Of a DNA stretch of 64,000 bases, positions 3,628 to 43,780 are shown piece by piece. Both the position numbers and the translations under genes were made by a program. Position 1 is the stretch's first letter, and each line of letters begins with the position of its first letter. The DNA lies in the sequence record MN850597.1; one strand, 5' to 3'. The notes below the pieces were generated by a model, which did no database searches, was not told where the DNA came from, and worked only from the letters and a program-made list of their open reading frames with translations. The DNA comes from Escherichia phage isim.

Positions 3628-3815
3628 ATTTTACCCCCTATGTAGTCCGGTCGGTTTTTCTCTGTCATGCGCTTTAGCAATTCTTGCATGTTACTTATGG
3701 CTTGTAGTGTATCCTCTTCCAGGCTTGAATCGACATAATCAGGATCGTCTATGACCTTTCTATGATTATGATAACGCAGTACCGCCAATACCTTTCTAAC
3801 TTGTTCAGTATTCAT
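3624..3815 (-). CDS. hypothetical protein (63 aa)
   Basis: ORF; stop overlaps next start. Confidence 0.45.
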   Translation of the reverse strand: MNTEQVRKVLAVLRYHNHRKVIDDPDYVDSSLEEDTLQAISNMQELLKRMTEKNRPDYIGGKI

Positions 3816-3831
3816 TTTACATCGCCCTTAC

Positions 3832-4122
3832 TTATTGTTGGCGGTTTACGTAAGCTTTACCGTTTACCGTCATCGGCAAATCTTCCAGGTCTGGATCTTC
3901 CTTAAGGTCGCGAGCAAGTTCACCGCACCGGATACCCTCGAATCCGTAGTACTCTGTTGTACCGTCATTAAAAGTTTTAGTGGCAAGGCATAAGCGATAA
4001 GTAACCCCGATTCGATTGACGGCATGAATATCCGTTAGATTAACCTCTTTTGCCAGCTCATTAGCCATTGCAGGCGCACTAAGTCCAACAACCAGGGCAA
4101 CCACTGCGATCATCTTTTTCAT
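3832..4122 (-). CDS. small secreted/periplasmic protein with N-terminal signal peptide (96 aa)
   Basis: N-terminus MKKMIAVVALVVGLSAPAMA is signal-peptide-like; RBS AAGAGGA. Confidence 0.6.
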   Translation of the reverse strand: MKKMIAVVALVVGLSAPAMANELAKEVNLTDIHAVNRIGVTYRLCLATKTFNDGTTEYYGFEGIRCGELARDLKEDPDLEDLPMTVNGKAYVNRQQ

Positions 4123-4213
4123 TGTGTCTATCCTCTTTCTGCTACGTTTAAGGCGGCGGTAACCGCCTGTTTATGATTTGTTGGTTAATTTTCGGGTATC
4201 GGTATAAATTAAA

Positions 4214-5497: not shown

Positions 5498-5782
5498 TTA
5501 TTTATTGATAGCGTGCAGCGGGAAAGCTACGCCAGGTTGATAAATAACCTTTACAACCTCATCAGGACAAAAGAAGTTGCAGAACTCACCGCAATAGGCC
5601 TCATCCTCTTTCAACTCTTCATCAACATACTCAAAAAAGTAGTCGATGCTTGGATAATCCTGGCCGTGATTATAGTCAACCATCGTTAATAATAACTCTT
5701 GATCATTCCGTAGGATGTGCATACCCGCTTTTAAGTATTTTGCTTCCATTTCTACTACATCGCCAGCGGTAACAATAGCCAT
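5498..5782 (-). CDS. hypothetical acidic protein (94 aa)
   Basis: ORF; RBS AGGAG. Confidence 0.6.
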   Translation of the reverse strand: MAIVTAGDVVEMEAKYLKAGMHILRNDQELLLTMVDYNHGQDYPSIDYFFEYVDEELKEDEAYCGEFCNFFCPDEVVKVIYQPGVAFPLHAINK

Positions 5783-5984
5783 GATTTTAACTCCTATCTA
5801 TCTGGTCAACGATTGGGGGCCTCCCCCTCGACAACTCTTATTATCCATATTGTCGGGAATGATGCAAGTACTTCTTTAAAAATTTTTTAAGCGCCCCGTA
5901 TGCCGTTGTAACGCCAAAATAATAAAGGCCATGCAACCGCATGGCCTTTATGTGATTATATTGCTGCAGGCCCTGCTAGGGGCC

Positions 5985-6335
5985 TTATTTTACATTCTTG
6001 CCTGTATTGCCGCCACGGTACCAGCGTTTGCGGTGAAAATGGTAATAATCACCCTCGGCATTAAACATCAGATGATTTTCAATAACCAGCTTACGAAGGT
6101 GGGCCGGATCTTGTTCCATTCTTGCCAGATTCCGGCGGCTGTTACGTAAGCGTATAAATTCCATATTCAGGCCGTTGATTGCAGCATGGATGTCAAAGTA
6201 ACCACCTTTGAGACGTTCACGCATGGCGTTAAGCTCAACACAATATACAGATTTCTCACAAATCAAGGTATTAGCTAGGGCGCGGACCTGGGCAAGGGGG
6301 TTAAGCTCATTAAGGTAATATAGTTTGACTTTCAT
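5985..6335 (-). CDS. hypothetical protein (116 aa)
   Basis: ORF in series; weak RBS. Confidence 0.5.
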   Translation of the reverse strand: MKVKLYYLNELNPLAQVRALANTLICEKSVYCVELNAMRERLKGGYFDIHAAINGLNMEFIRLRNSRRNLARMEQDPAHLRKLVIENHLMFNAEGDYYHFHRKRWYRGGNTGKNVK

Positions 6336-35507: not shown

Positions 35508-36004
35508 TTATTGCGCTCCTTGTAGTAGATATGACTCCCGAACTGAGCTGTCCTCTGCATCTTTTTTGCCCATTTCGGTCGTACTTTGGTTGTATGGTAG
35601 TGTGTTGCTCCACCTGTTATGTCCATAGCCATGTATGCAACATGGTTGTTATTATAGACCTTTAGAAGCATCTTTGCAAGACTTTTAGCGTGATCCCATG
35701 AATCTTTTTCTGTCACCTTAAAAGTTTTGCCGTGGTTTGTCCACGAAAACTGGTTAGGTTGGTAGACAATCTTTCTTATGGTGTCTGGGTATTTGGGGTG
35801 AGATTTCCTGTTTAGGGTGGCAAACCCAGATGCCAGCATACCCATCGTGCCATCCCCTCTAGCTTCCCTGTAGATATTGCATGCTAGAATGTTTTCCTTA
35901 GTATCTGATGGCTTGCAAGTATGGTATACTTTTTGTTTTGGTGCTGCAACAACAGGCAGCGATAAAAATGCGCTCAAAATAATAGCAAAGATCTTAATTT
36001 TCAC
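35504..36004 (-). CDS. secreted SleB-like cell-wall hydrolase (166 aa; GTG start)
   Basis: Signal peptide MKIKIFAIILSAFLSLPVVAA; NIYREARGDG...ATLNR...YPDTI...VYQPNQFSW matches the SleB-type motif pattern. Confidence 0.7.
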   Translation of the reverse strand: MKIKIFAIILSAFLSLPVVAAPKQKVYHTCKPSDTKENILACNIYREARGDGTMGMLASGFATLNRKSHPKYPDTIRKIVYQPNQFSWTNHGKTFKVTEKDSWDHAKSLAKMLLKVYNNNHVAYMAMDITGGATHYHTTKVRPKWAKKMQRTAQFGSHIYYKERNK

Positions 36005-36024
36005 AATAACTCCAAATAGAAAAT

Positions 36025-36045
36025 CCCCGCCGAAGCGGGGGAGGT
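36025..36045 (-). terminator. UUCG-tetraloop hairpin (CCCCCGC-UUCG-GCGGGG) plus U-rich tract; near-identical copy at 62436
   Basis: Read directly; follows the 36054 stop on the minus strand. Confidence 0.55.
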
Positions 36046-36053
36046 CTTAGAAA

Positions 36054-36434
36054 TTAATCGTAGTGTGCCAAAATCTCTCCATCGTTGCAAGTTCCCTCTA
36101 CAAAGTTATGAAGATTCATGCACTCATCTTGATAGAAGAATTTACCGCTTTTCAGCCGTAAGCCAAACAACTCCGCATCTCCACGATGGCAAGCCTCTAC
36201 AAGTTCATAGATTTCATACGGCAACTCTCCGTCGTCATGGAAGAACCCAGCCTTATCGTTGACATAGATGAAGAAATAATCACTGCTGTCGCAAGCGTCC
36301 AATATTTTAAACCAGATTTCATCTACATCTTTTTCTCGGATATCGATCACGCAAGTGGAGCTGCATTCGTACTCCTTCTCCGGCTCCTCGGTCAATACCA
36401 CCAGGTAGTTTCCCCGCTTACCTACTTTAGCCAT
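36054..36434 (-). CDS. hypothetical acidic protein (126 aa)
   Basis: ORF in series. Confidence 0.55.
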   Translation of the reverse strand: MAKVGKRGNYLVVLTEEPEKEYECSSTCVIDIREKDVDEIWFKILDACDSSDYFFIYVNDKAGFFHDDGELPYEIYELVEACHRGDAELFGLRLKSGKFFYQDECMNLHNFVEGTCNDGEILAHYD

Positions 36435-36443
36435 ACAACCTCC

Positions 36444-37628
36444 TTAAGCTTTAGCCAAAATGGCGCTAAACTCTTCACCAAACTCTTTTACAATCTTCAT
36501 CAGGTTTGGGTATGCTTTGATCAGCTGAGCAACGATCTTGTCACGACCTTTACCGATAAGCAAGGCATTTCCTAAGGCATTAGGTTTCATCATCGCCATA
36601 AAGACTGAAAATACAAAATCTCGGTTCTCGTCCTTGAAGTTTTCCCAAAGGAAATCGAGAAAGTTTGCCACACAGCTAACAAGATCTTCGTCGGAGATAC
36701 TTGCATTTTCCATCATATTACGAATAGCGATGCAACCTTCAGATCCAAGAATCCACAAGATGTCTGGCTGTTTAGGACCTACGTATTCTTTGCAACCTCC
36801 TGCCATAATCCGACCGATTTCCGGTAAGTTGCGTTTCTTGGTGTGGTAAGTCCAGATCTCTACCGCTGCAGTGTGACCAATAGCACCTTGCAGAAGAACA
36901 CGGGCCATAGCGTCAGAAATAATACCGCTGTCAAAATCGTGCAAGATATCAGATGCAGCAACCCAAGATCGCGGTGTGGCAAAAGATGGACAATTAATCT
37001 CAGCCATGGCCTCATAATTATCGATAGCTGATGGAACTCTTTTCAGATATCCAATTACAGAGGAGTGCACCCCATTAAGGAATGCGTAGTCCTCAATAAA
37101 CACCTCTGCATTGCTTGTAACCTCTACAATGATAAAACGGTTAGCCAGAGGGGCTTCGAGCGCCGAAAGAACCGCACCATCTGTAGAACGGTTACCAGCA
37201 GCCACAAAAACAGACCCCTTAGGGAATGCATAAGTACCGCACTTGTGGTCAAGCATAATTTGCATTGCAACCTTTTGTAGGTAGTTATCTGCATGAGTGA
37301 GCTCATCCAGAAAGATAATTCCGCTCCAGTCAGGATCCGCAGGCCAAAATTCTGGAATTGCAAACACTGTACGTGTAGTTCCATCCGCTTCTACAGGGAT
37401 AGGTAGCCCAGATAAGTCGGCAGGATCTTTATCTGACAGTCGCACGTCAACAAGGTTGTCATCTCGCTCACCGAACATATTATCAGCGATCTGCTTCATC
37501 ACCTGGCTTTTACCCACACCCATTGGTCCCAAAATTAGGACAGATCGGCTATGACGTTGGGCAAACTGAATAATAGCTGGCAACTCACGGACAGTGATTT
37601 GACCACTTTCGAATACGTTTCTTGACAT
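36444..37628 (-). CDS. MoxR-like AAA+ ATPase (CobS-like) (394 aa)
   Basis: Walker A LILGPMGVGKSQ; Walker B-like IIFLDELTH. Confidence 0.8.
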   Translation of the reverse strand: MSRNVFESGQITVRELPAIIQFAQRHSRSVLILGPMGVGKSQVMKQIADNMFGERDDNLVDVRLSDKDPADLSGLPIPVEADGTTRTVFAIPEFWPADPDWSGIIFLDELTHADNYLQKVAMQIMLDHKCGTYAFPKGSVFVAAGNRSTDGAVLSALEAPLANRFIIVEVTSNAEVFIEDYAFLNGVHSSVIGYLKRVPSAIDNYEAMAEINCPSFATPRSWVAASDILHDFDSGIISDAMARVLLQGAIGHTAAVEIWTYHTKKRNLPEIGRIMAGGCKEYVGPKQPDILWILGSEGCIAIRNMMENASISDEDLVSCVANFLDFLWENFKDENRDFVFSVFMAMMKPNALGNALLIGKGRDKIVAQLIKAYPNLMKIVKEFGEEFSAILAKA

Positions 37629-37897
37629 TAGTAAAAGTCCTCTACTTGTGTGTAAGTGTTTTCAAAGTTTTCCAAAACAGATATCACATCGAATCTGTCA
37701 ATATCATACGTGACTCTCCAGTTGTACGCAACCCTTTCTGCTGTTGCCTCTTCTGGCGCTAGTCGTCTGCTGGCATAAAAGAGTGTTGGAGTACACTTTC
37801 TTGCTTGCCCTCTAACTTTCCCATAATAATATCTGTGAATATCTTTGTCAAAATTTAACTCTTTTTCTGCACGAAGTTCATATTGCTGGTATAACAT
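37628..37897 (-). CDS. hypothetical protein (89 aa)
   Basis: ORF in series. Confidence 0.5.
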   Translation of the reverse strand: MLYQQYELRAEKELNFDKDIHRYYYGKVRGQARKCTPTLFYASRRLAPEEATAERVAYNWRVTYDIDRFDVISVLENFENTYTQVEDFY

Positions 37898-37941
37898 CTC
37901 TACTACTCCTTAAGCGGCATCCTTGCCGCCATTCCTGCCCA

Positions 37942-38322
37942 CTAAAATGCAGTCCGAATCCAGACAAGGTTCTTATCTGCCCAATCATAGAGGCAAGTCA
38001 TTGCGCTATTGAATTGCTCACACGGAGGATAATCTTCTTCCATCTGGCGCATAGCAGAGCCTTGTGGGTAAAGCTCCCGTGCTGCAAGCCACGCATCGTA
38101 GTCATCCACGGTATCGAAGTAGTATACAACATCCTCCAACTCAGGATCGAACTTTGAATTATCAGGATCCAGTTGTTCAGGGAACTTGGAGCGTAACTTG
38201 CCAGCCACAATGCTTGCCAACTCGCTAACATGCTTATTGTCCCACTCTACTAGTTTCCCGTCTTCAGCGATGCGTCCTAACCACTGATCATGAAGGTCAA
38301 CTGTTGTCTTCCACCGGGCCAT
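37942..38322 (-). CDS. hypothetical protein (126 aa)
   Basis: ORF in series. Confidence 0.55.
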   Translation of the reverse strand: MARWKTTVDLHDQWLGRIAEDGKLVEWDNKHVSELASIVAGKLRSKFPEQLDPDNSKFDPELEDVVYYFDTVDDYDAWLAARELYPQGSAMRQMEEDYPPCEQFNSAMTCLYDWADKNLVWIRTAF

Positions 38323-38324
38323 TA

Positions 38325-38582
38325 TCAGTCCACCTCTTCTTCTCGTTGCAGTTCAAGATACCCGTAGGTCTGGATATCTTCAAGGGTGTGGAAATCCCCA
38401 TCTGCCGCTAAGGCACGAACAACTTGGCACAAAACTTTATGAGGGACTTCATCCAGACCCAGATTCAGTGCAGGGAACACCTTATCTAAGTCAACAAAAT
38501 AAACGAACTGTAGCTCACCAGCTTCAAAAGGTGTATCTTCAATAAACATCTTCTCGGCATTAGTCAAGATCTGCACTTTCAT
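38325..38582 (-). CDS. hypothetical protein (85 aa)
   Basis: ORF in series. Confidence 0.5.
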   Translation of the reverse strand: MKVQILTNAEKMFIEDTPFEAGELQFVYFVDLDKVFPALNLGLDEVPHKVLCQVVRALAADGDFHTLEDIQTYGYLELQREEEVD

Positions 38583-38959
38583 TATTCTGCCTCCTCTTCT
38601 TTTTCTTCGGCGTTAGTTTCAGTGCTACCCCACTCTGGAGTTTCCACCTCGATAGTAAACTCACGCACTACACGGTAATTGCCCATGAAGCGCTCCACCT
38701 CGTCAAGGCTTATGGCGAGGCCATTGGAAACCAGGTCTGCAGCACCCTCTTCTACCAGATAGTCCAGATTGGCTTCCAAAGCTTCAGGCTCGAACCCTGT
38801 CAATGCAATCAGATAACCTTTCCCTTCATCAGGTAGGACAATACAGCCCAACTGATTTTCTTTAAAAAGGCAGTGACCATCATTATTGATGGGGTGTTCA
38901 TTGCAGTAAATAGCTGCACGATAAGTAGCTTTAGACATCGGTAAGGCCTCCTTAGGCAA
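38582..38959 (-). CDS. hypothetical protein (125 aa)
   Basis: ORF in series. Confidence 0.55.
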   Translation of the reverse strand: MPKEALPMSKATYRAAIYCNEHPINNDGHCLFKENQLGCIVLPDEGKGYLIALTGFEPEALEANLDYLVEEGAADLVSNGLAISLDEVERFMGNYRVVREFTIEVETPEWGSTETNAEEKEEEAE

Positions 38960-39230
38960 TTGTCATTTTACATTCTTGAAATTTTAACACAAGACGGTGA
39001 TTGTGTCTAGTGTCTAAAAAGATTTTTTCAACCATCAGGCACACGGTATAACCGTCCATCTTGTTAACAACAAAATCTCCAGGGTGAGGGAGGATGTCCC
39101 CTGGATTGGGGAAACATAACCCGCTCAAGAAGGCATCATCGGTGGTGGACTTAATGGATTTCCACACACTATCTGCCTGAACATTCTCACCAACATAATA
39201 TACATTACCACATGCCTTCATCATAGTCAA
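38952..39230 (-). CDS. hypothetical protein (92 aa)
   Basis: ORF in series. Confidence 0.5.
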   Translation of the reverse strand: MTMMKACGNVYYVGENVQADSVWKSIKSTTDDAFLSGLCFPNPGDILPHPGDFVVNKMDGYTVCLMVEKIFLDTRHNHRLVLKFQECKMTIA

Positions 39231-40126
39231 ACCCTCGCATAAATTAAACTTGTATCAGTATACTTTTTTAATGGGTAAATATCCTGTCCATAGATGCAAT
39301 CATTAAACACCTCATCTACCCAAAGGCTACACTTATATCCCATCATTTCTAAAACACCCATCTCTTCTTCGGTAAACTTATCACCGCTCTTGCAAGATGT
39401 CAATACCTCATTCTGAACTCTTGCTACCTCGAAGCGGTTATTGGCAATATCGCTATTGGCGATCAAATACTCACCTAGAGGGTGTGCGGCATTAAAGATG
39501 CACAGTGGACGGCTGACGTAATAGTCTCCAGGTGTATAAAAATTATTGAGGTCTTTCACTAGAACATTCTTATCAGTCACTTCATTTATAACATCATGCA
39601 TATCGCACATCTTTATATGTTTGAGGATTCCATCCCCCATCACAAAATAAAAACTTGCTGAAACACTTTCGGCATAGATCTTACTAGATCCGTTGTAGTT
39701 GTATTTTACTCGGATGCTAACGGGGGTTTTTCCTGTCGCGTTAGCCATCATCCAAAGAAATGGCAGCTCATACTTCTCCTCTGAGGAAACAAAAGGTGAA
39801 GTAGCCAGAGATCGAAAACCTCCAGAGAAGTTGAAAGTTACAGAACCGCTCCGGCGGTATGATACTGCGTATTCTACTTTTATATCAACGTATCCGTTGG
39901 AGTAAGTATGCCCTCCATTATCAAGGTATGTCCACTTATCAGACCCGGATACCAACCTCCGCTCAATTACCTTCATCACCATAGGAATTAGCGGATTAGT
40001 ACAAACCGATCTTGAAGTAGCTTTATCATCCAAAGCCTCGTAAATTGCAGAAAGGATGTCCCCAGCTGAAAGATTGGTTGTTATGTCCTGTTTCCACCGC
40101 GTACTAAAACTGTTAAGATTTGCCAT
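39227..40126 (-). CDS. hypothetical protein (299 aa), first gene of the minus block at the strand switch
   Basis: ORF with RBS; promoter TTGACT-N17-TATAGT upstream. Confidence 0.6.
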   Translation of the reverse strand: MANLNSFSTRWKQDITTNLSAGDILSAIYEALDDKATSRSVCTNPLIPMVMKVIERRLVSGSDKWTYLDNGGHTYSNGYVDIKVEYAVSYRRSGSVTFNFSGGFRSLATSPFVSSEEKYELPFLWMMANATGKTPVSIRVKYNYNGSSKIYAESVSASFYFVMGDGILKHIKMCDMHDVINEVTDKNVLVKDLNNFYTPGDYYVSRPLCIFNAAHPLGEYLIANSDIANNRFEVARVQNEVLTSCKSGDKFTEEEMGVLEMMGYKCSLWVDEVFNDCIYGQDIYPLKKYTDTSLIYARV

Positions 40127-40166
40127 AAGTAAGTGCTCCTATGTTAGTTTTCTTTCGAATGGGTGC

Positions 40167-40237
40167 ACTATATCGGAGATTTAGAGTAAAGTCAACACGT
40201 TTTTGATGTTGACATCTATTGAAACAATTGATACGAT
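40167..40237. promoter_or_regulatory. Divergent sigma70-like promoter pair at the strand switch (minus: TTGACT-N17-TATAGT at 40167-40195; plus: TTGACA-N17-TACGAT at 40209-40237)
   Basis: Hexamers read directly on both strands between divergently oriented gene blocks. Confidence 0.5.
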
Positions 40238-40268
40238 TTCTTCACTTACAGGGCACGAGAGACAACTC

Positions 40269-41246
40269 ATGAATCTTGAAAAATATTATACACCAGAAGA
40301 GTTAGAGCGCCTGCTCAAAAAATATAGACGCAAACAGAATAATGCACGGAAACGAGATATAGAGTTCAACCTGTCATGGGAAGAATACCTCCTATTTGGT
40401 AAAAAACTTTTAGGAGATGGAGTATGCGACTATACCCTTATACCTTTTGACATGCACACAGATGAAAACGGGCTGGGAAATCCTTTCTACCCATCTTTGG
40501 AGCGTATAGATGATGAAGGTCCTTACGCAATTGACAATTGTTGTGTGGTAGGGTTGAGGTGCAATGCTCTGAAAGACTGTTTGGTAGATAAAAAGACTGC
40601 AATCCTGATTAAAGACAAAACTGATCGAAAAATTGTCCAGCAGATGATGCTCCACCTGAGCGAAGAGCGTATGGAGAAATTGAAAGGTGATTATACTTTT
40701 GAAGATTTCATCTTGCAATACGGGACAGAAGAAGATAAACTAGCACTATTTGACGAAGAGGAAGAAGATATGTCACCAATGCAGGACTTTAAAAATTTCA
40801 TGGCTGATCGTGCAGCCAACAAACACATTTCAGACATCGTGAACGAGACTGTGACAGAAGAAGTTGAAGAACAGAACTCTGAAGAGGAAAAAGAGCCTCA
40901 GGAGGTCGAAGAGGGGATTGCAGAAGAGGTTCCTGCACTGCCTGATGATGTTGAGATTGCTAAGGCTTACACTTTCTATTGTCAAACGTTCTACGATGCA
41001 GGTATGAAAGTTGATCTGTCGTTCAGCCAATTTAAGAGTTCGTATATTCGCAAATGCTGTGCTTTAACTGGTGAACGTCTCGGAGCTGGACTTAAACCAC
41101 TGTTGGTGACCGACTGGAATAAAGGTTTCACTAAAGGAAACTTTATGGTAGTATCTCCAATTATGGAGAAAGCTATGACAGATCTTATGAAGACCACCCG
41201 CATGACAATGACCGAGTTGGCAGGTATTTTCAAACACGTTAAATAA
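40269..41246 (+). CDS. hypothetical protein with acidic central region (about 325 aa; start moved to MNLEKYY because the plus promoter overlaps the ORF-track start at 40203)
   Basis: ORF; predicted promoter lies inside the first 35 nt of the longer ORF. Confidence 0.55.
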   Translation: MNLEKYYTPEELERLLKKYRRKQNNARKRDIEFNLSWEEYLLFGKKLLGDGVCDYTLIPFDMHTDENGLGNPFYPSLERIDDEGPYAIDNCCVVGLRCNALKDCLVDKKTAILIKDKTDRKIVQQMMLHLSEERMEKLKGDYTFEDFILQYGTEEDKLALFDEEEEDMSPMQDFKNFMADRAANKHISDIVNETVTEEVEEQNSEEEKEPQEVEEGIAEEVPALPDDVEIAKAYTFYCQTFYDAGMKVDLSFSQFKSSYIRKCCALTGERLGAGLKPLLVTDWNKGFTKGNFMVVSPIMEKAMTDLMKTTRMTMTELAGIFKHVK

Positions 41247-41258
41247 TGACAGGGGCCA

Positions 41259-42740
41259 ATGGCCCCTTCTGGAGTTTTAATGGATAGCAGAAGTTCAGAA
41301 ATCATTACCTCACAGAAAGATGATGCCCTGAGAATGTTGCAGGCTGCACGTATGTATCTCCTTGAAAAGCTGCCGTTTTATGGCACACTACTGTCAGGGT
41401 TGCAGTTCGTAGAAAACCACACATGGTGCTCCACCATGGCAACCGACCATAAACGCATCTATTACAGTCCTGAGTTCATTATGGGATTGGCTGATGAACG
41501 CAAGGCTATTCTTAAGGCTTCTCTAACTGACGAGCAGTTTGAGATGGCTGAAGTTTTCTATTCCCCAAAATCTGTGAAAGAGGTGGCCTTCCTTCTGTCA
41601 CATGAGGTGGGGCATATTATCTGTGATCACCTGGTCCGTGGTAAAAGCTTTGAGCCGGAACTGTTCAATATTGCTTGTGATCACGTTATCAACACAGGCC
41701 TTGTGGTTGACTTTAGCAAACCTCCTTGTGTTTTCTTCCCGAAGGGGAAAAGCACTACGTTCGTGAAAGGTAAGCCTTTTGGCTTCTTAGCCAGCTGCTA
41801 CTGCGACATGAAGTTTCATGGATGGATTGCTGAGAACGTTTATGCAGTTCTTGATAAGCAAAGAGATCAGAATAACGGTAAAAGTAAGAGCGGTAAAGGT
41901 GAGAACTCTCAAGGTGATAAGCGACAAACCGATGATCACATGAGTGGGAATGGTGGCACCAGTGATAATCTTGGAAAGGCTATGGGGTATGATCAGCCAC
42001 AACCTGTAATCAGCCAATCTGATAAAGATCAGGCCATGCAGGACTCTGGCGATATGCTGGAGGCAGCAATGCAAGCGTCCGGAGGCCGTTGCCCTGAGGC
42101 GGTGCGTGAGTTTGTCAAGAACAGAGGTAAGCCTGTAATCAACTATATAGACATCATTAAGCAACGCATGTTGTCTAAAAGAAAGGCCGAACTGACCTAC
42201 AGAAAACCTGGTCGCCGATCTGGGTCTTTGACCAGCACAATGCGAAAAGTTGGGGCTATAAACAAGAACCAGCACGTTATTGTTCCTGGTCGTAATCCGG
42301 AAAACACTATAGATATTGTGGTGGCTTTAGACGTTTCTGGCTCGATCTCTCAGAGAACTTTAAAGAAAATGTTCAATGAAATCACCGGATTGTGCAATCT
42401 GTATAAAGAGTTTAAGGTTACAATGTTCTGTTGGTCAACTGAGGTTGGAGAGGTTAAAGTATACACTCGCGGCAACATAGACGAGATGATCAACTATGAG
42501 GTCCACTCAACATGGGGCACAACAGCTGCTTGCGTGTTCGAGTATCTGGATGCCAACATACCGAATGCAAAAGATGTCATCGTCCTGACCGACCTATACT
42601 TTGAGCATAACTTTGAACAAAAGGCTGTTGACAACAAGTGGAAAAAGTACGATACTCTATGGGTCCTCACTGAAGGGTATAATAAAAATTATATCCCGAG
42701 CTTTGGGAAAACTGTGGAATTAATCGAGTACGCTAAGTAA
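41259..42740 (+). CDS. HExxH plus VWA-domain protein (CobT/DUF2201-like; usual partner of MoxR-type ATPases) (493 aa)
   Basis: HEVGHIICDH zinc-binding-like motif; VWA MIDAS-like VVALDVSGSIS. Confidence 0.7.
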   Translation: MAPSGVLMDSRSSEIITSQKDDALRMLQAARMYLLEKLPFYGTLLSGLQFVENHTWCSTMATDHKRIYYSPEFIMGLADERKAILKASLTDEQFEMAEVFYSPKSVKEVAFLLSHEVGHIICDHLVRGKSFEPELFNIACDHVINTGLVVDFSKPPCVFFPKGKSTTFVKGKPFGFLASCYCDMKFHGWIAENVYAVLDKQRDQNNGKSKSGKGENSQGDKRQTDDHMSGNGGTSDNLGKAMGYDQPQPVISQSDKDQAMQDSGDMLEAAMQASGGRCPEAVREFVKNRGKPVINYIDIIKQRMLSKRKAELTYRKPGRRSGSLTSTMRKVGAINKNQHVIVPGRNPENTIDIVVALDVSGSISQRTLKKMFNEITGLCNLYKEFKVTMFCWSTEVGEVKVYTRGNIDEMINYEVHSTWGTTAACVFEYLDANIPNAKDVIVLTDLYFEHNFEQKAVDNKWKKYDTLWVLTEGYNKNYIPSFGKTVELIEYAK

Positions 42741-42755
42741 GAGAGGAGGTTATTT

Positions 42756-43019
42756 ATGGCAACAGAGTTAAAATTTGCATCAAACCGTAAAACTAAGAAG
42801 TATCTGTCCTCAGTAGCTCCAGGCGCTGTGGTGATGTTTGTTGATGAACTTGGGGATGTGAATACAGCACTTGTTGTAAAATCACATCCTGCAAACATAT
42901 ATGTTGGGGTATTTGACCTGTTCAGAAAGGTGTTTGTAGAACTACCTCACAGTTTGGTTGTTACAGAAATGGATGCCTGCATAGAAATTCTTGGCGAAGT
43001 TATGGTGGAGGAACAATAA
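42756..43019 (+). CDS. tandem-paralog family member 1 (87 aa)
   Basis: MATELKFASNRKTKK...GAVV...LPHSLVVTEMDACIEILGE aligns with the next ORF; overlapping ATGA junctions. Confidence 0.6.
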   Translation: MATELKFASNRKTKKYLSSVAPGAVVMFVDELGDVNTALVVKSHPANIYVGVFDLFRKVFVELPHSLVVTEMDACIEILGEVMVEEQ

Positions 43020-43282
43020 TGGCTACTAGCATTGTATTCAATTCTAAGGTGAAGAACAAAAAGCGTGCAGACAGTTTTCCGTGTGGGACCGTGGTAAGTT
43101 GCGACGGAGACGGTATTCAAAACATAGTTATGATTGTCAAAACAGGAGAACATTGTGTGTGGGGGTTCGATTTAGAAAATAATGAGTTGTACGATCTGCC
43201 GCCAAACATGAAAGTTACAGAGCTTGACACCAAAATTACCATCCTTGGAGAGACAAGCTATTCAAAAGAAGGAGGAGAATAA
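43019..43282 (+). CDS. tandem-paralog family member 2 (87 aa)
   Basis: MATSIVFNSKVKNKK...GTVV...LPPNMKVTELDTKITILGE. Confidence 0.6.
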   Translation: MATSIVFNSKVKNKKRADSFPCGTVVSCDGDGIQNIVMIVKTGEHCVWGFDLENNELYDLPPNMKVTELDTKITILGETSYSKEGGE

Positions 43283-43545
43283 TGACCACAAAAATCACTA
43301 TCGCAGAACCGAAAGCTAACACTCAGCCTATCGAAAAGTTTAAGTGCGGTGAGGTGGTAACATTCACACCAGATAATGAAGATGCTAAGATTTTCGCAAT
43401 GGTCACAGCTGAGTGGATGTGTGACAACACCACACAGGTTCTGCGTTTTGACACCTATCTTACCGATGAAATCAGGAACGACAAGATTGTGACTGGTGTG
43501 GATACTGAGATTGTTTTCTACAAGAGCTTTTTAGAGGGTTTCTGA
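43282..43545 (+). CDS. tandem-paralog family member 3, more divergent (87 aa)
   Basis: Same length; KFKCGEVVTF vs SFPCGTVVSC; ATGA junction. Confidence 0.55.
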   Translation: MTTKITIAEPKANTQPIEKFKCGEVVTFTPDNEDAKIFAMVTAEWMCDNTTQVLRFDTYLTDEIRNDKIVTGVDTEIVFYKSFLEGF

Positions 43546-43546
43546 T

Positions 43547-43780
43547 ATGGCAAAAATTCGAAAATTATCTAGCAATCAGGTTGTGAAAGACTTCGAATCT
43601 GGAGAGATTCTTTATGTTCGTGATGCAGATGACGAAGGTGAAGATCTCGTTATGTTGGTGGGGCACGCTGAGGACGGATGCATCCAAGCTGTTTTTCTTG
43701 AAACAGCTATGGTGCACTGGATAGAGCTGGACTTGAAAGCACGAAAACCTAAAGCAGAAATCCTGATTTACGAAGATTAA
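43547..43780 (+). CDS. tandem-paralog family member 4, divergent (77 aa)
   Basis: FESGEILYV ... acidic patch; similar size and position. Confidence 0.5.
   Translation: MAKIRKLSSNQVVKDFESGEILYVRDADDEGEDLVMLVGHAEDGCIQAVFLETAMVHWIELDLKARKPKAEILIYED

Follow-up and report, generated by a model that had tools for sequence, protein, structure and literature searches.

The window, i.e., the entire 64,000-nucleotide stretch of Escherichia phage isim (MN850597.1) that was analysed, belongs to a Vequintavirus, an rV5-like coliphage approximately 98% identical to Bas57 MaxTheCat. The locus contains a MoxR-class AAA+ ATPase gene and, on the opposite strand, a gene that fuses a zincin-like HExxH domain to a VWA domain. 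Both open reading frames were present as originally predicted, divergent and 3.6 kb apart (37628 to 41259/41280). The genes and regulatory features were as follows:

36025-36040, minus strand: intrinsic-terminator-like hairpin CCCCGCTTCGGCGGGG with a T-rich tail, one gene downstream of the ATPase
36444-37628, minus strand: MoxR-class AAA+ ATPase gene (394-aa open reading frame; rV5 gene 4; phrog_1297)
37628-40126, minus strand: six small, acidic, lineage-specific genes (rV5 genes 5-10)
37823-37851, minus strand: internal sigma-70-like site, TTGACA-17-TATTAT (11/12 consensus match)
40167-40237, both strands: back-to-back sigma-70-like promoters (consensus matches)
40195-40167, minus strand: minus promoter, TTGACT-17-TATAGT (sigma-70 consensus match)
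40191-40213: inverted repeat in the sequence, holding both -35 boxes
40209-40237, plus strand: plus promoter, TTGACA-17-TACGAT with TG (sigma-70 consensus match)
40269-41246, plus strand: Srd-like anti-sigma gene (phrog_3118), which opens the plus arm and has the VWA gene directly downstream
41280-42740, plus strand: zincin-like HExxH and VWA/MIDAS fusion gene (486 aa; rV5 gene 12; phrog_1314)

The original prediction placed 'six unknown genes' between the pair; there were in fact seven, six on the minus strand and one on the plus strand. The six were restricted to close relatives, and none accompanied the pair in other lineages. The plus-strand gene matched the Srd anti-sigma and sigma-70 decoy families more weakly than phrog_3118; it was annotated as an anti-sigma factor, rV5 gp11 was discussed as an Srd homologue in the rV5 paper, and in L016-L020 and GAP31 the gene likewise came before that of the VWA protein. 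Other neighbours of the pair in the window were rIIA/rIIB and a helicase. The reading frame of the fusion gene opened at 41259 (41259-42740, plus strand); the true start is likely to be 41280, because GGAG lies 5 bases 5' of it and it fits the 486-aa annotation in related phages.

The ATPase matched phrog_1297 (E = 2e-110), and a profile search matched Midasin AAA domains (E = 7e-11). The protein itself fell under the Pfam cut-offs for AAA_5 and AAA_3; among its 5711 homologues, these families were found on those at 31-35% identity. Its AF2 model (pLDDT 86) had NorQ and CbbQ as the closest solved structures. Judged by an alignment of 58 homologues, the ATPase carries the full set of catalytic motifs, all on the minus strand, with the roles of sensor 1, R164 and R220 assigned by AAA+ conventions:

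37503-37538: Walker A segment LILGPMGVGKSQ, residues 31-42 (G34, G37, G39, K40 and S41 invariant or nearly so)
37359-37406: predicted beta-hairpin in helix 2, residues ~75-90 (AF2 secondary structure)
37302-37319: Walker B, IIFLDE (D108, E109; invariant columns)
36963-37202: stretch containing sensor 1, R164 and R220
37188-37202: putative sensor 1, AAGNR (N146/R147; invariant column)
37134-37145: R164, candidate arginine finger (invariant column)
36963-36977: R220, candidate sensor 2 (invariant column)

Strands 75-81 and 84-90 of the model, which follow beta2 and precede Walker B, predict the H2-insert hairpin that marks the MoxR/dynein/midasin clade (PMC13036017).

The fusion protein matched phrog_1314 (E = 5e-123), as well as Pfam DUF2201_N (E = 1.2e-27) over its zincin-like HExxH part and DUF2201 (E = 3.6e-11) over its VWA part. 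Given the Pfam and PHROG E-values, the domain readings of the fusion protein and the ATPase are not due to chance. Its functional sites, on the plus strand, were:

41601-41630: HEVGHIICDH, residues 115-124
41601-41693: candidate metal site from alignments, H115-E116-x-x-H119, H124, D141 and N145
42330-42596: MIDAS as invariant alignment columns, D358-x-S360-G-S362, T421 and D445 (DVSGS at 42330-42344; Thr within 42513-42524; Asp within 42585-42596)

The metal-site residues of the N-terminal domain were invariant in alignments of 26, 56 and 17 sequences; in the first two of these, the second comprising phage and bacterial homologues, the complete MIDAS was invariant together with HExxH, H124 and D141. 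When the N-terminal profile was compared with the PDB, only M48-type and minigluzincin peptidases were matched (MJ1213 projannalysin, 3.5e-4; BepA; HtpX), through a strand-turn-strand and the HExxH helix, although this likeness was weak (E = 3.5e-4 to 0.07 over ~40 residues). The third ligand of gluzincins is a distant Glu, whereas the invariant candidates for a third zinc ligand here were H124 or D141. The DUF2201_N domain is a putative peptidase. The CobS/CobT likeness put forward originally was not borne out, since neither protein matched a CobS or CobT family in Pfam or NCBIfam at E <= 0.01.

The two genes are the version, in rV5-type E. coli phages, of a gene pair that is widespread in phages and bacteria and is known as gp24/gp25 in N4-like phages (Schitoviridae). 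The ATPase is a homologue of G7C gp24 (annotated N4 gp24-like) and the fusion protein of G7C gp25 (annotated N4 gp25-like); domain content was the same, and tblastn against the G7C locus gave E = 9e-18 and 2e-14, although identity was only ~23%. The Vequintavirus proteins were longer, with an extra helical C-terminus on the ATPase and an insert of ~30 residues before the HExxH helix. In N4, gp24 and gp25 are middle genes (PMC4193335), and both belong to the N4-like phages' core set of 14 genes. The same MoxR AAA+/metallopeptidase-vWA architecture was described from group 2.2 jumbo phages (Iyer et al. 2021, PMC7824862), and homologues of both window proteins were found in jumbo phages BF, RaK2, PA5oct and G17. 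Neither the pair nor its split layout is new, both having been annotated or published already: the rV5 paper described gene 4 as a MoxR ATPase and gene 12 as DUF2201_N, along with bidirectional promoters lying between gene 10 and gene 11. No experiments on the pair, in any phage, were found in the literature searched, and no expression data turned up for this phage group.

The expectation that the pair normally occurs together proved correct, as the genes were adjacent and co-directional almost everywhere else and occurred in the same phage groups. Of 72 informative loci in viral contigs (IMG/VR), picked by ATPase similarity alone, 69 had the ATPase directly upstream of a co-directional DUF2201 gene; in bacteria this was true of all 75 informative loci, picked by DUF2201 similarity alone, where the ATPase was the sole conserved neighbour. 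Adjacent pairs were observed in jumbo phage BF and other group 2.2 jumbo phages, the more distant Vequintavirinae phage ChuuTotoro, large metagenomic phage contigs and Sulfurivermis. In N4-like phages the genes were likewise adjacent and co-directional, although in G7C one HNH homing endonuclease gene intervened. Across 50,697 phage records the VWA gene occurred in 727 and the ATPase in 820, the counts being nearly equal per host genus. These patterns support membership of the two window proteins in a MoxR-ATPase/VWA partnership. The bacterial DUF2201 operons (Sulfurivermis, Sedimenticola; the rV5 paper listed Thioalkalivibrio Tgr7_2285 as a homologue) shared the partner domains and invariant residues, with the ATPase directly upstream; they differed in lying on the chromosomes of sulfur-oxidising Gammaproteobacteria, where inheritance is apparently vertical, and identity was ~22-25%. 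A gene for an uncharacterised ~370-aa protein often came next, and it went undetected in the phage loci compared. The split on opposite strands is unusual for the family, and was confined to Vequintavirus and its nearest relatives, Seunavirus included.

Sigma-70-like promoters were located exactly where a divergent promoter region had been predicted (40167-40237), and phage Gotham has promoters annotated at the same place, as well as a terminator at the place equivalent to 36025-36040. It had also been held that both genes must be co-regulated from this region. Co-regulation is plausible but not necessary, given the internal site, which lies within an 89-aa gene, 223 nt upstream of where the ATPase starts. 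The position of this site was kept in all Vequintavirus loci and in clade L016-L019 (ATPase 73% identical), while the site was absent in GAP31; its conservation could be caused by the coding sequence. Gene position and promoter type suggest that the pair acts in the cytoplasm, early or midway through infection; neither protein was among the rV5 virion proteins detected by MS (Table S3 of the rV5 paper).

The ATPase and the zincin/VWA protein are best interpreted as the partners of a conserved two-gene module, and probably as one remodelling-proteolysis machine of early or middle infection. Ancestrally, the two genes would have formed an operon led by the ATPase. The ancestor shared by Vequintavirus, Seunavirus and their nearest relatives would then have undergone a rearrangement at the divergent early promoter, which placed the ATPase in the long minus arm and the VWA gene in the short plus arm, following the Srd-like anti-sigma gene. 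As both genes are intact and remain together in the genome, they most likely still form one machine. By analogy with solved MoxR/VWA systems, an ATPase hexamer would dock the VWA domain, whose MIDAS metal ion would capture a target protein by an acidic residue, and ATP-driven movement would remodel the target, after which the fused zincin domain may cut either the target or the adaptor itself. The structurally closest ATPases, by the model, are those of NorQ/NorD and CbbQ/CbbO, where the VWA partner has a MIDAS and the ATPase ring moves the VWA adaptor bound to the target; NorQD provides the precedent for finger-in-pore docking and MIDAS targeting (PMC13036017). This mode of action likely applies to the phage pair. 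In contrast to the phage protein, with its minimal VWA domain (~140 residues) fused to a zincin, NorD and CbbO lack a peptidase domain and insert a long finger into the ATPase pore; there is no room here for a NorD-type finger of 45 residues, so docking may differ. The NorQ/CbbQ targets, nitric oxide reductase and Rubisco, were absent here.

A role as virion-assembly chaperone and processing protease, helping tail or head components to fold or assemble and trimming structural proteins, was proposed for group 2.2 jumbo phages, with a precedent in the MoxR-vWA system needed for tail development of Acidianus two-tailed virus (PMC7824862). In keeping with this, the pair followed four genes annotated as structural in Serratia phage BF, and the gp24/gp25 region of N4-like phages was near a 'second structural module' (PMC4193335) and a capsid decoration protein gene. 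The proposal of Iyer et al. is not favoured here because the pair is in the early region, beside sigma-70-like early promoters, anti-sigma, rIIA/rIIB and helicase genes and outside the late structural block. The middle class of gp24/gp25 in N4 also counts against it, as does the stable chromosomal operon of sulfur-oxidising bacteria, which have no virion; a virion role was considered unlikely.

It is very unlikely that the pair is instead a metal-insertion chaperone of the NorQ/NorD, CoxD/CoxE or chelatase type, whose HExxH would hold or hand over metal for a phage nucleotide or DNA enzyme. The characterised systems NorQD, CoxD/E, CobST and BchID do insert metals (PMC13036017). In N4-like, jumbo and metagenomic phages the pair also recurred close to thymidylate synthase or dCTP deaminase, but such neighbours were absent from the window and from bacterial loci. 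Moreover, ThyA-type thymidylate synthase (Pfam Thymidylat_synt) needs no metal, which counts against this reading. In zincin hydrolysis the HExxH Glu serves as the general base, and binding a metal alone does not require it, so the invariance of E116 argues against metal-holding only, while the N-terminal profile matched bona fide peptidases only and no family of CobS, CobT or CobN type was matched.

That the two proteins became functionally independent in Vequintavirus, the ATPase acting alone or with another partner and the VWA-peptidase without a motor, would accord with their different transcription units, the seven intervening genes, a possible promoter belonging to the ATPase (37823-37851), and two related contigs that break the linkage, each with one gene but not the other within 10 kb (the VWA gene in L020, the ATPase in L082), but is highly improbable, since a dissolved partnership would be expected to lose either gene, whereas the split layout was kept in relatives with amino-acid identity as low as 47-73%, all catalytic and MIDAS residues were intact in every split-layout relative examined (47% to 99% identity), at least 80% of the 7-kb region was covered in 114 of 121 matching records, and the ATPase and VWA protein diverged in step (73 and 62%, 50 and 48%, 37 and 34% identity).

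Both open reading frames described in the original prediction were recovered at the positions given there, divergently oriented and 3.6 kb apart. The intervening genes numbered seven, rather than the 'six unknown genes' first counted; six of these were small genes on the minus strand (37628-40126), while the seventh, on the plus strand, could be identified. The features of the region were as follows.

36040-36025, minus strand: terminator-like hairpin, one gene past the ATPase gene
36444-37628, minus strand: MoxR-class ATPase gene, 394 aa
37851-37823, minus strand: TTGACA-17-TATTAT, the best match to the sigma-70 consensus in the region, 223 nt upstream of the ATPase start
40195-40167, minus strand: sigma-70-like site, TTGACT-17-TATAGT
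40209-40237, plus strand: sigma-70-like site, TTGACA-17-TACGAT, with an extended -10 TG
40269-41246, plus strand: Srd-like anti-sigma factor gene, the seventh intervening gene
41259-42740, plus strand: open reading frame of the VWA/HExxH protein

A 7-kb query around these genes had matches of 90-99% identity in 121 phage records, almost all from Vequintavirus (rV5-like myophages) of E. coli. The best match was Bas57 MaxTheCat (98.4%), and the annotations of this phage and of phage Gotham corresponded one-to-one with the open reading frames of the window. Transcription was almost wholly leftwards, the exception being a rightward block of approximately 7 kb (40.2-47.2 kb), where the GC skew also flipped. 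Sixteen records named 'Campylobacter phage' were matched by megablast of 36000-43000, C. jejuni being the stated host in 15; among the matches listed, Campylobacter phage C12 showed 96.7% identity over the full 7 kb, and the VWA protein was matched at 99% in Campylobacter phages A147 and D1. Mislabelling or contamination of these records seems likely.

Comparative evidence from sequence that the ATPase and the VWA protein belong together as a pair was strong. A search of 50,697 phage genomes at the protein level gave 727 records with the VWA gene and 820 with the ATPase, and the two occurred in almost equal numbers within host genera (VWA/ATPase: Escherichia 214/215, Pseudomonas 104/108, Klebsiella 62/68, Pectobacterium 26/26, Cronobacter 17/17, Achromobacter 17/17). 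In both jumbo phage BF and the Vequintavirinae phage ChuuTotoro, the two genes were co-directional neighbours with the ATPase upstream, an arrangement also seen in large metagenomic phage contigs and on a Sulfurivermis chromosome. N4-like phage G7C had this order too, with a gene for an HNH homing endonuclease separating gp24 (ATPase) from gp25 (VWA). Adjacency was then counted in two samples of 80 loci, each dominated by a single clade, such that the counts are not of independent events: among IMG/VR viral loci selected by ATPase similarity only, the DUF2201 gene (i.e., that of the VWA partner) was immediately downstream of the ATPase in 69 (gaps of -58 to +548 nt), and eight of the other 11 ended within 330 nt of the ATPase, leaving 72 informative loci, three of them true exceptions; among bacterial loci selected by similarity to the DUF2201 protein only, all from sulfur-oxidising Gammaproteobacteria, the ATPase was directly upstream in every one of the 75 that had enough upstream DNA. 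The layout recurred between lineages at only 22-35% identity. The proposal, first made from the window alone, that a MoxR-type ATPase and a VWA protein form a pair was borne out by this adjacency (69/72 viral, 75/75 bacterial) and by the matching co-occurrence counts. Two contigs had one gene and lacked the other within 10 kb: a Vequintavirinae-like contig (L020) with the VWA gene (45% identity), and a 61-kb viral contig (L082) with a full-length ATPase (28% identity).

Outside close relatives the pair was accompanied by none of the seven genes that separate it here, and the bacterial loci had no other conserved neighbour; ferrochelatase, thioredoxin and Lon were considered as partners and rejected, not being linked to the DUF2201 gene there. 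Directly 3' of the DUF2201 gene, 32 of the 80 bacterial loci (L108-L187) encoded a protein of approximately 370 aa that lacked any Pfam match; in 47 of the 80, the sequence downstream extended for 2.5 kb or more. This protein went undetected in the phage loci compared, and may be a third component in bacteria. In ChuuTotoro, a gene annotated as GTP pyrophosphokinase (RelA/SpoT-like, 3714-4193) was situated on the same arm as the pair, three genes upstream.

Against this background of adjacency, the split layout, with the two genes on opposite arms of a divergent promoter, is lineage-specific, an exception of long standing in the rV5/PVP-SE1 group. The split was found in Vequintavirus proper, in a related clade (L016-L019; 73% identity for the ATPase, 62% for the VWA protein) and in Seunavirus GAP31/PVP-SE1 (50% and 48%); Klebsiella relatives appear to share it, judging by hit coordinates. 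The arrangement in ChuuTotoro, where the pair was together on one arm and the Srd-like gene was on the other, suggests that genes were rearranged around the divergent promoter. Across the split-layout lineages both proteins diverged in step while every functional residue was kept in each, which argues that the partnership survived the split.

The ATPase is a divergent member of the MoxR-class AAA+ proteins, and not a non-member. The Walker A motif had been read correctly (LILGPMGVGKSQ, residues 31-42), and Walker B (IIFLDE), AAGNR, R164 and R220 were also present. In an alignment of 58 homologues, G34/G37/G39/K40/S41, D108/E109, N146/R147, R164 and R220 were invariant, and these include all of the nucleotide-binding and hydrolysis residues; the specific roles of R164 as arginine finger and R220 as sensor 2 are assigned by inference. 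While the protein matched phrog_1297 ('ATPase', E = 2e-110), it fell below Pfam cut-offs (AAA_5, 16.7 bits vs 22; AAA_3 not listed). Membership follows despite this sub-threshold score because, among 5711 database homologues, those at 31-35% identity carried AAA_3 or AAA_5 (the MoxR and dynein-type families), and because the family profile matched the AAA domains of Midasin in the PDB (E = 7e-11). In the AF2 model (pLDDT 86), predicted strands at 75-81 and 84-90, between beta2 and Walker B, would form the helix-2-insert beta-hairpin, a clade feature defined in PMC13036017; a short pre-sensor-1 hairpin was predicted at approximately 128-134, and the best solved matches by Foldseek were the MoxR proteins NorQ (1.7e-8) and CbbQ (2e-7). 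The model had an extra helical C-terminal part (residues ~280-394). Thus, each MoxR-class feature tested was found, save for Pfam's own score threshold; pairing with a VWA partner was among them, the partner in the window being encoded at a distance and on the opposite strand.

The partner belongs fully to the DUF2201 family and resembles N4 gp25. Pfam identified DUF2201_N (PF13203, E = 1.2e-27, 97.7 bits against a cut-off of 23.2) followed by DUF2201 (PF09967, E = 3.6e-11, 43.7 bits against 26.4), which is the expected order, and phrog_1314 matched at E = 5e-123; with the Pfam and PHROG matches, chance occurrence of both genes was ruled out. The two motifs on which the protein had been recognized, HEVGHIICDH at residues 115-124 and a MIDAS, were present, the latter complete (D358-V-S-G-S362, T421, D445). 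Exactly five residues of the first domain (H115, E116, H119, H124, D141) and six of the second (D358, S360, G361, S362, T421, D445) were invariant across 56 phage and bacterial homologues, and therefore both the zincin and MIDAS sites are under strong constraint. The model (pLDDT 84.7 overall) comprised two well-predicted domains and a disordered, charged linker (~205-250); strands at 49-69 and a helix at 106-121 bearing HExxH were predicted for the domain at the N terminus, and the C-terminal domain had a VWA fold. Fold searches with the whole model returned VWA-domain matches only and so were uninformative on the N-terminal domain, for which a profile was used instead. Among PDB sequences this profile matched metallopeptidases only, namely minigluzincin MJ1213 (3.5e-4), BepA, HtpX and another M48 member, across the strand-turn-strand and the HExxH helix. 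No invariant downstream Glu of the gluzincin type was present in the N-terminal alignments of the family; H124 and D141 are candidate third zinc ligands among the invariant residues.

The true start of the VWA gene is probably 41280 rather than 41259, given a GGAG five bases upstream, a palindrome in the gap and the ATG annotated in related phages, resulting in a protein of 486 aa. The palindrome (AGGGGCC-AAT-GGCCCCT, 41251-41267) was perfect and GC-rich, lay between the Srd-like and VWA genes, and overlapped the first ATG of the open reading frame; it could be an attenuator or RNA processing site. The published rV5 table (record DQ832317) divides the DUF2201 protein between two overlapping genes, gene 12 (441 aa) and gene 13 (81 aa), where the window (41280-42740) and other relatives have the single 486-aa gene; the reference record probably contains a frameshift or a sequencing error. 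The label 'HNH endonuclease' carried by phrog_1314 was rejected as a misnomer, since Pfam found DUF2201_N and DUF2201 and no HNH match. It has been widely applied to the VWA/peptidase family, for which 'DNA repair ATPase' and 'tail protein' were also seen; ATPase homologues were labelled 'ribosomal protein uS19', 'putative replication protein large subunit' and 'transcription factor'. The HNH homing endonuclease gene of G7C (5534-6010) was inserted exactly between gp24 and gp25, and may be the origin of the HNH label on the neighbouring family.

The region at 40167-40237, previously proposed as a divergent promoter from which the two genes would have to be co-regulated, coincided with two sigma-70-like sites. 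Their -35 boxes formed an 8-bp inverted repeat (GTCAACAC...GTGTTGAC in minus-strand notation, 40191-40213), which could serve a regulator as a common operator. A transcript from the minus-strand promoter must cross six genes before it reaches the ATPase. Co-regulation from this point is possible but not required, because of the promoter-like site 223 nt upstream of the ATPase, and on sequence grounds the ATPase may have its own promoter. This site (37851-37823) was kept at the same position in the 73%-identity clade, and was absent in GAP31; it lies inside the coding sequence of an 89-aa gene, and so its conservation may reflect the encoded protein.

Solved MoxR/VWA systems have a ring made of the ATPase, and on this sits the VWA domain, a finger of which is inserted in the pore; the MIDAS ion is believed to capture an acidic target residue, and ATP-driven rotation remodels the target (PMC13036017). 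By its sequence, the phage pair would combine a ring motor, a MIDAS adaptor and a zincin domain with a conserved catalytic glutamate, and the best reading is that of a targeted, ATP-assisted machine for remodelling and cleavage. In contrast to NorQD, the phage VWA domain was minimal and without an obvious finger, and hence the mode of docking may differ; one might speculate that the role of the finger is taken by the disordered linker or the conserved C-terminus.

N4 gp24 and gp25 are middle genes, the genes in the window flank sigma-70-like promoters beside the anti-sigma gene, rIIA/rIIB and a helicase, and neither protein had mass-spectrometric evidence among rV5 virion proteins; together these point to the early or middle period. 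The published suggestion of a role in virion assembly and processing fits less well with these indications of timing, but keeps some plausibility because structural genes are found near the pair in BF and some N4-like phages. A metal-insertion role such as that of NorQD is a further rival, and is opposed by the invariant catalytic glutamate of the partner and by an N-terminal profile that matched peptidases only. Identity with the CobS/CobT cobaltochelatase, to which the pair had originally been likened, was not upheld: neither protein matched a CobS/CobT family at E <= 0.01 (Pfam, NCBIfam), the PHROGs matched were the generic 'ATPase' and phrog_1314, and no CobN-type large subunit or corrin pathway gene was annotated in 50 kb of a near-identical phage. 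Assignment to defence or anti-defence through PADLOC models gave nothing meaningful, with marginal P-loop matches only for the ATPase (E > 0.002) and none for the VWA protein. Literature searches on N4 gp24/gp25, DUF2201 and Vequintavirus transcriptomes turned up neither functional nor expression data, no transcript data for the rV5-like group and no biochemical report on DUF2201_N peptidase activity; a transposon-mutagenesis preprint concerned phiKZ only.

A bolder extension of the remodelling and cleavage reading, which we consider improbable, is that the module is an ATP-driven protease for host takeover or counter-defence and that its split is functional in Vequintavirus. The peptidase-VWA adaptor would be made first, with the Srd-like anti-sigma protein, and would mark a host protein through its MIDAS; the ATPase, from the other arm or its own promoter, would come later and drive cleavage. 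If true, this pair, one of few core gene pairs that N4-like, jumbo and rV5-like phages have in common, would be a new class of phage effector.

Overall, the feature first picked out is real, its motifs were read correctly and its interpretation was mostly right, but it was already known. The labels 'MoxR ATPase' and 'putative metallopeptidase' or 'VWA-like domain-containing protein' are common in deposited genomes; a 2021 description of the pair in jumbo phages exists, and both genes are counted among the 14 that make up the core of N4-like phages; and the rV5 genome paper gives gp11 as an Srd homologue, the ATPase as gene 4 and the DUF2201 protein as gene 12. Since the genes, names and divergent promoter are in public annotation and that paper, novelty is low. 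The modest additions are the adjacency count, the rV5/PVP-SE1 exception, the M48-type nearest solved relatives of the domain at the N terminus and the possible ATPase promoter. The interest rests on a widespread and conserved module for which E. coli phages are a convenient study system: the pair is one of few gene sets common to very different virulent phages (N4-like, many jumbo and the rV5 group) and is a stable operon in some bacteria, while its arrangement in Vequintavirus indicates that co-transcription is unnecessary for keeping it together. Phages with this arrangement that grow on E. coli K-12 and are genetically tractable are available in the BASEL collection, and in them each gene could be deleted or silenced separately.

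Two observations concern genes bordering the pair. Just downstream of the ATPase is a 126-aa gene (36054-36434, minus strand) for which the rV5 table names T5.083 of phage T5 as a homologue (E = 6e-22); its product is a small early protein in common with an unrelated phage family. On the 3' side of the VWA gene were four small head-to-tail genes (42756-43780; 87, 87, 87 and 77 aa), the first two of which were paralogues (38% identity, E = 1e-10), and this similarity suggests a tandem duplication.
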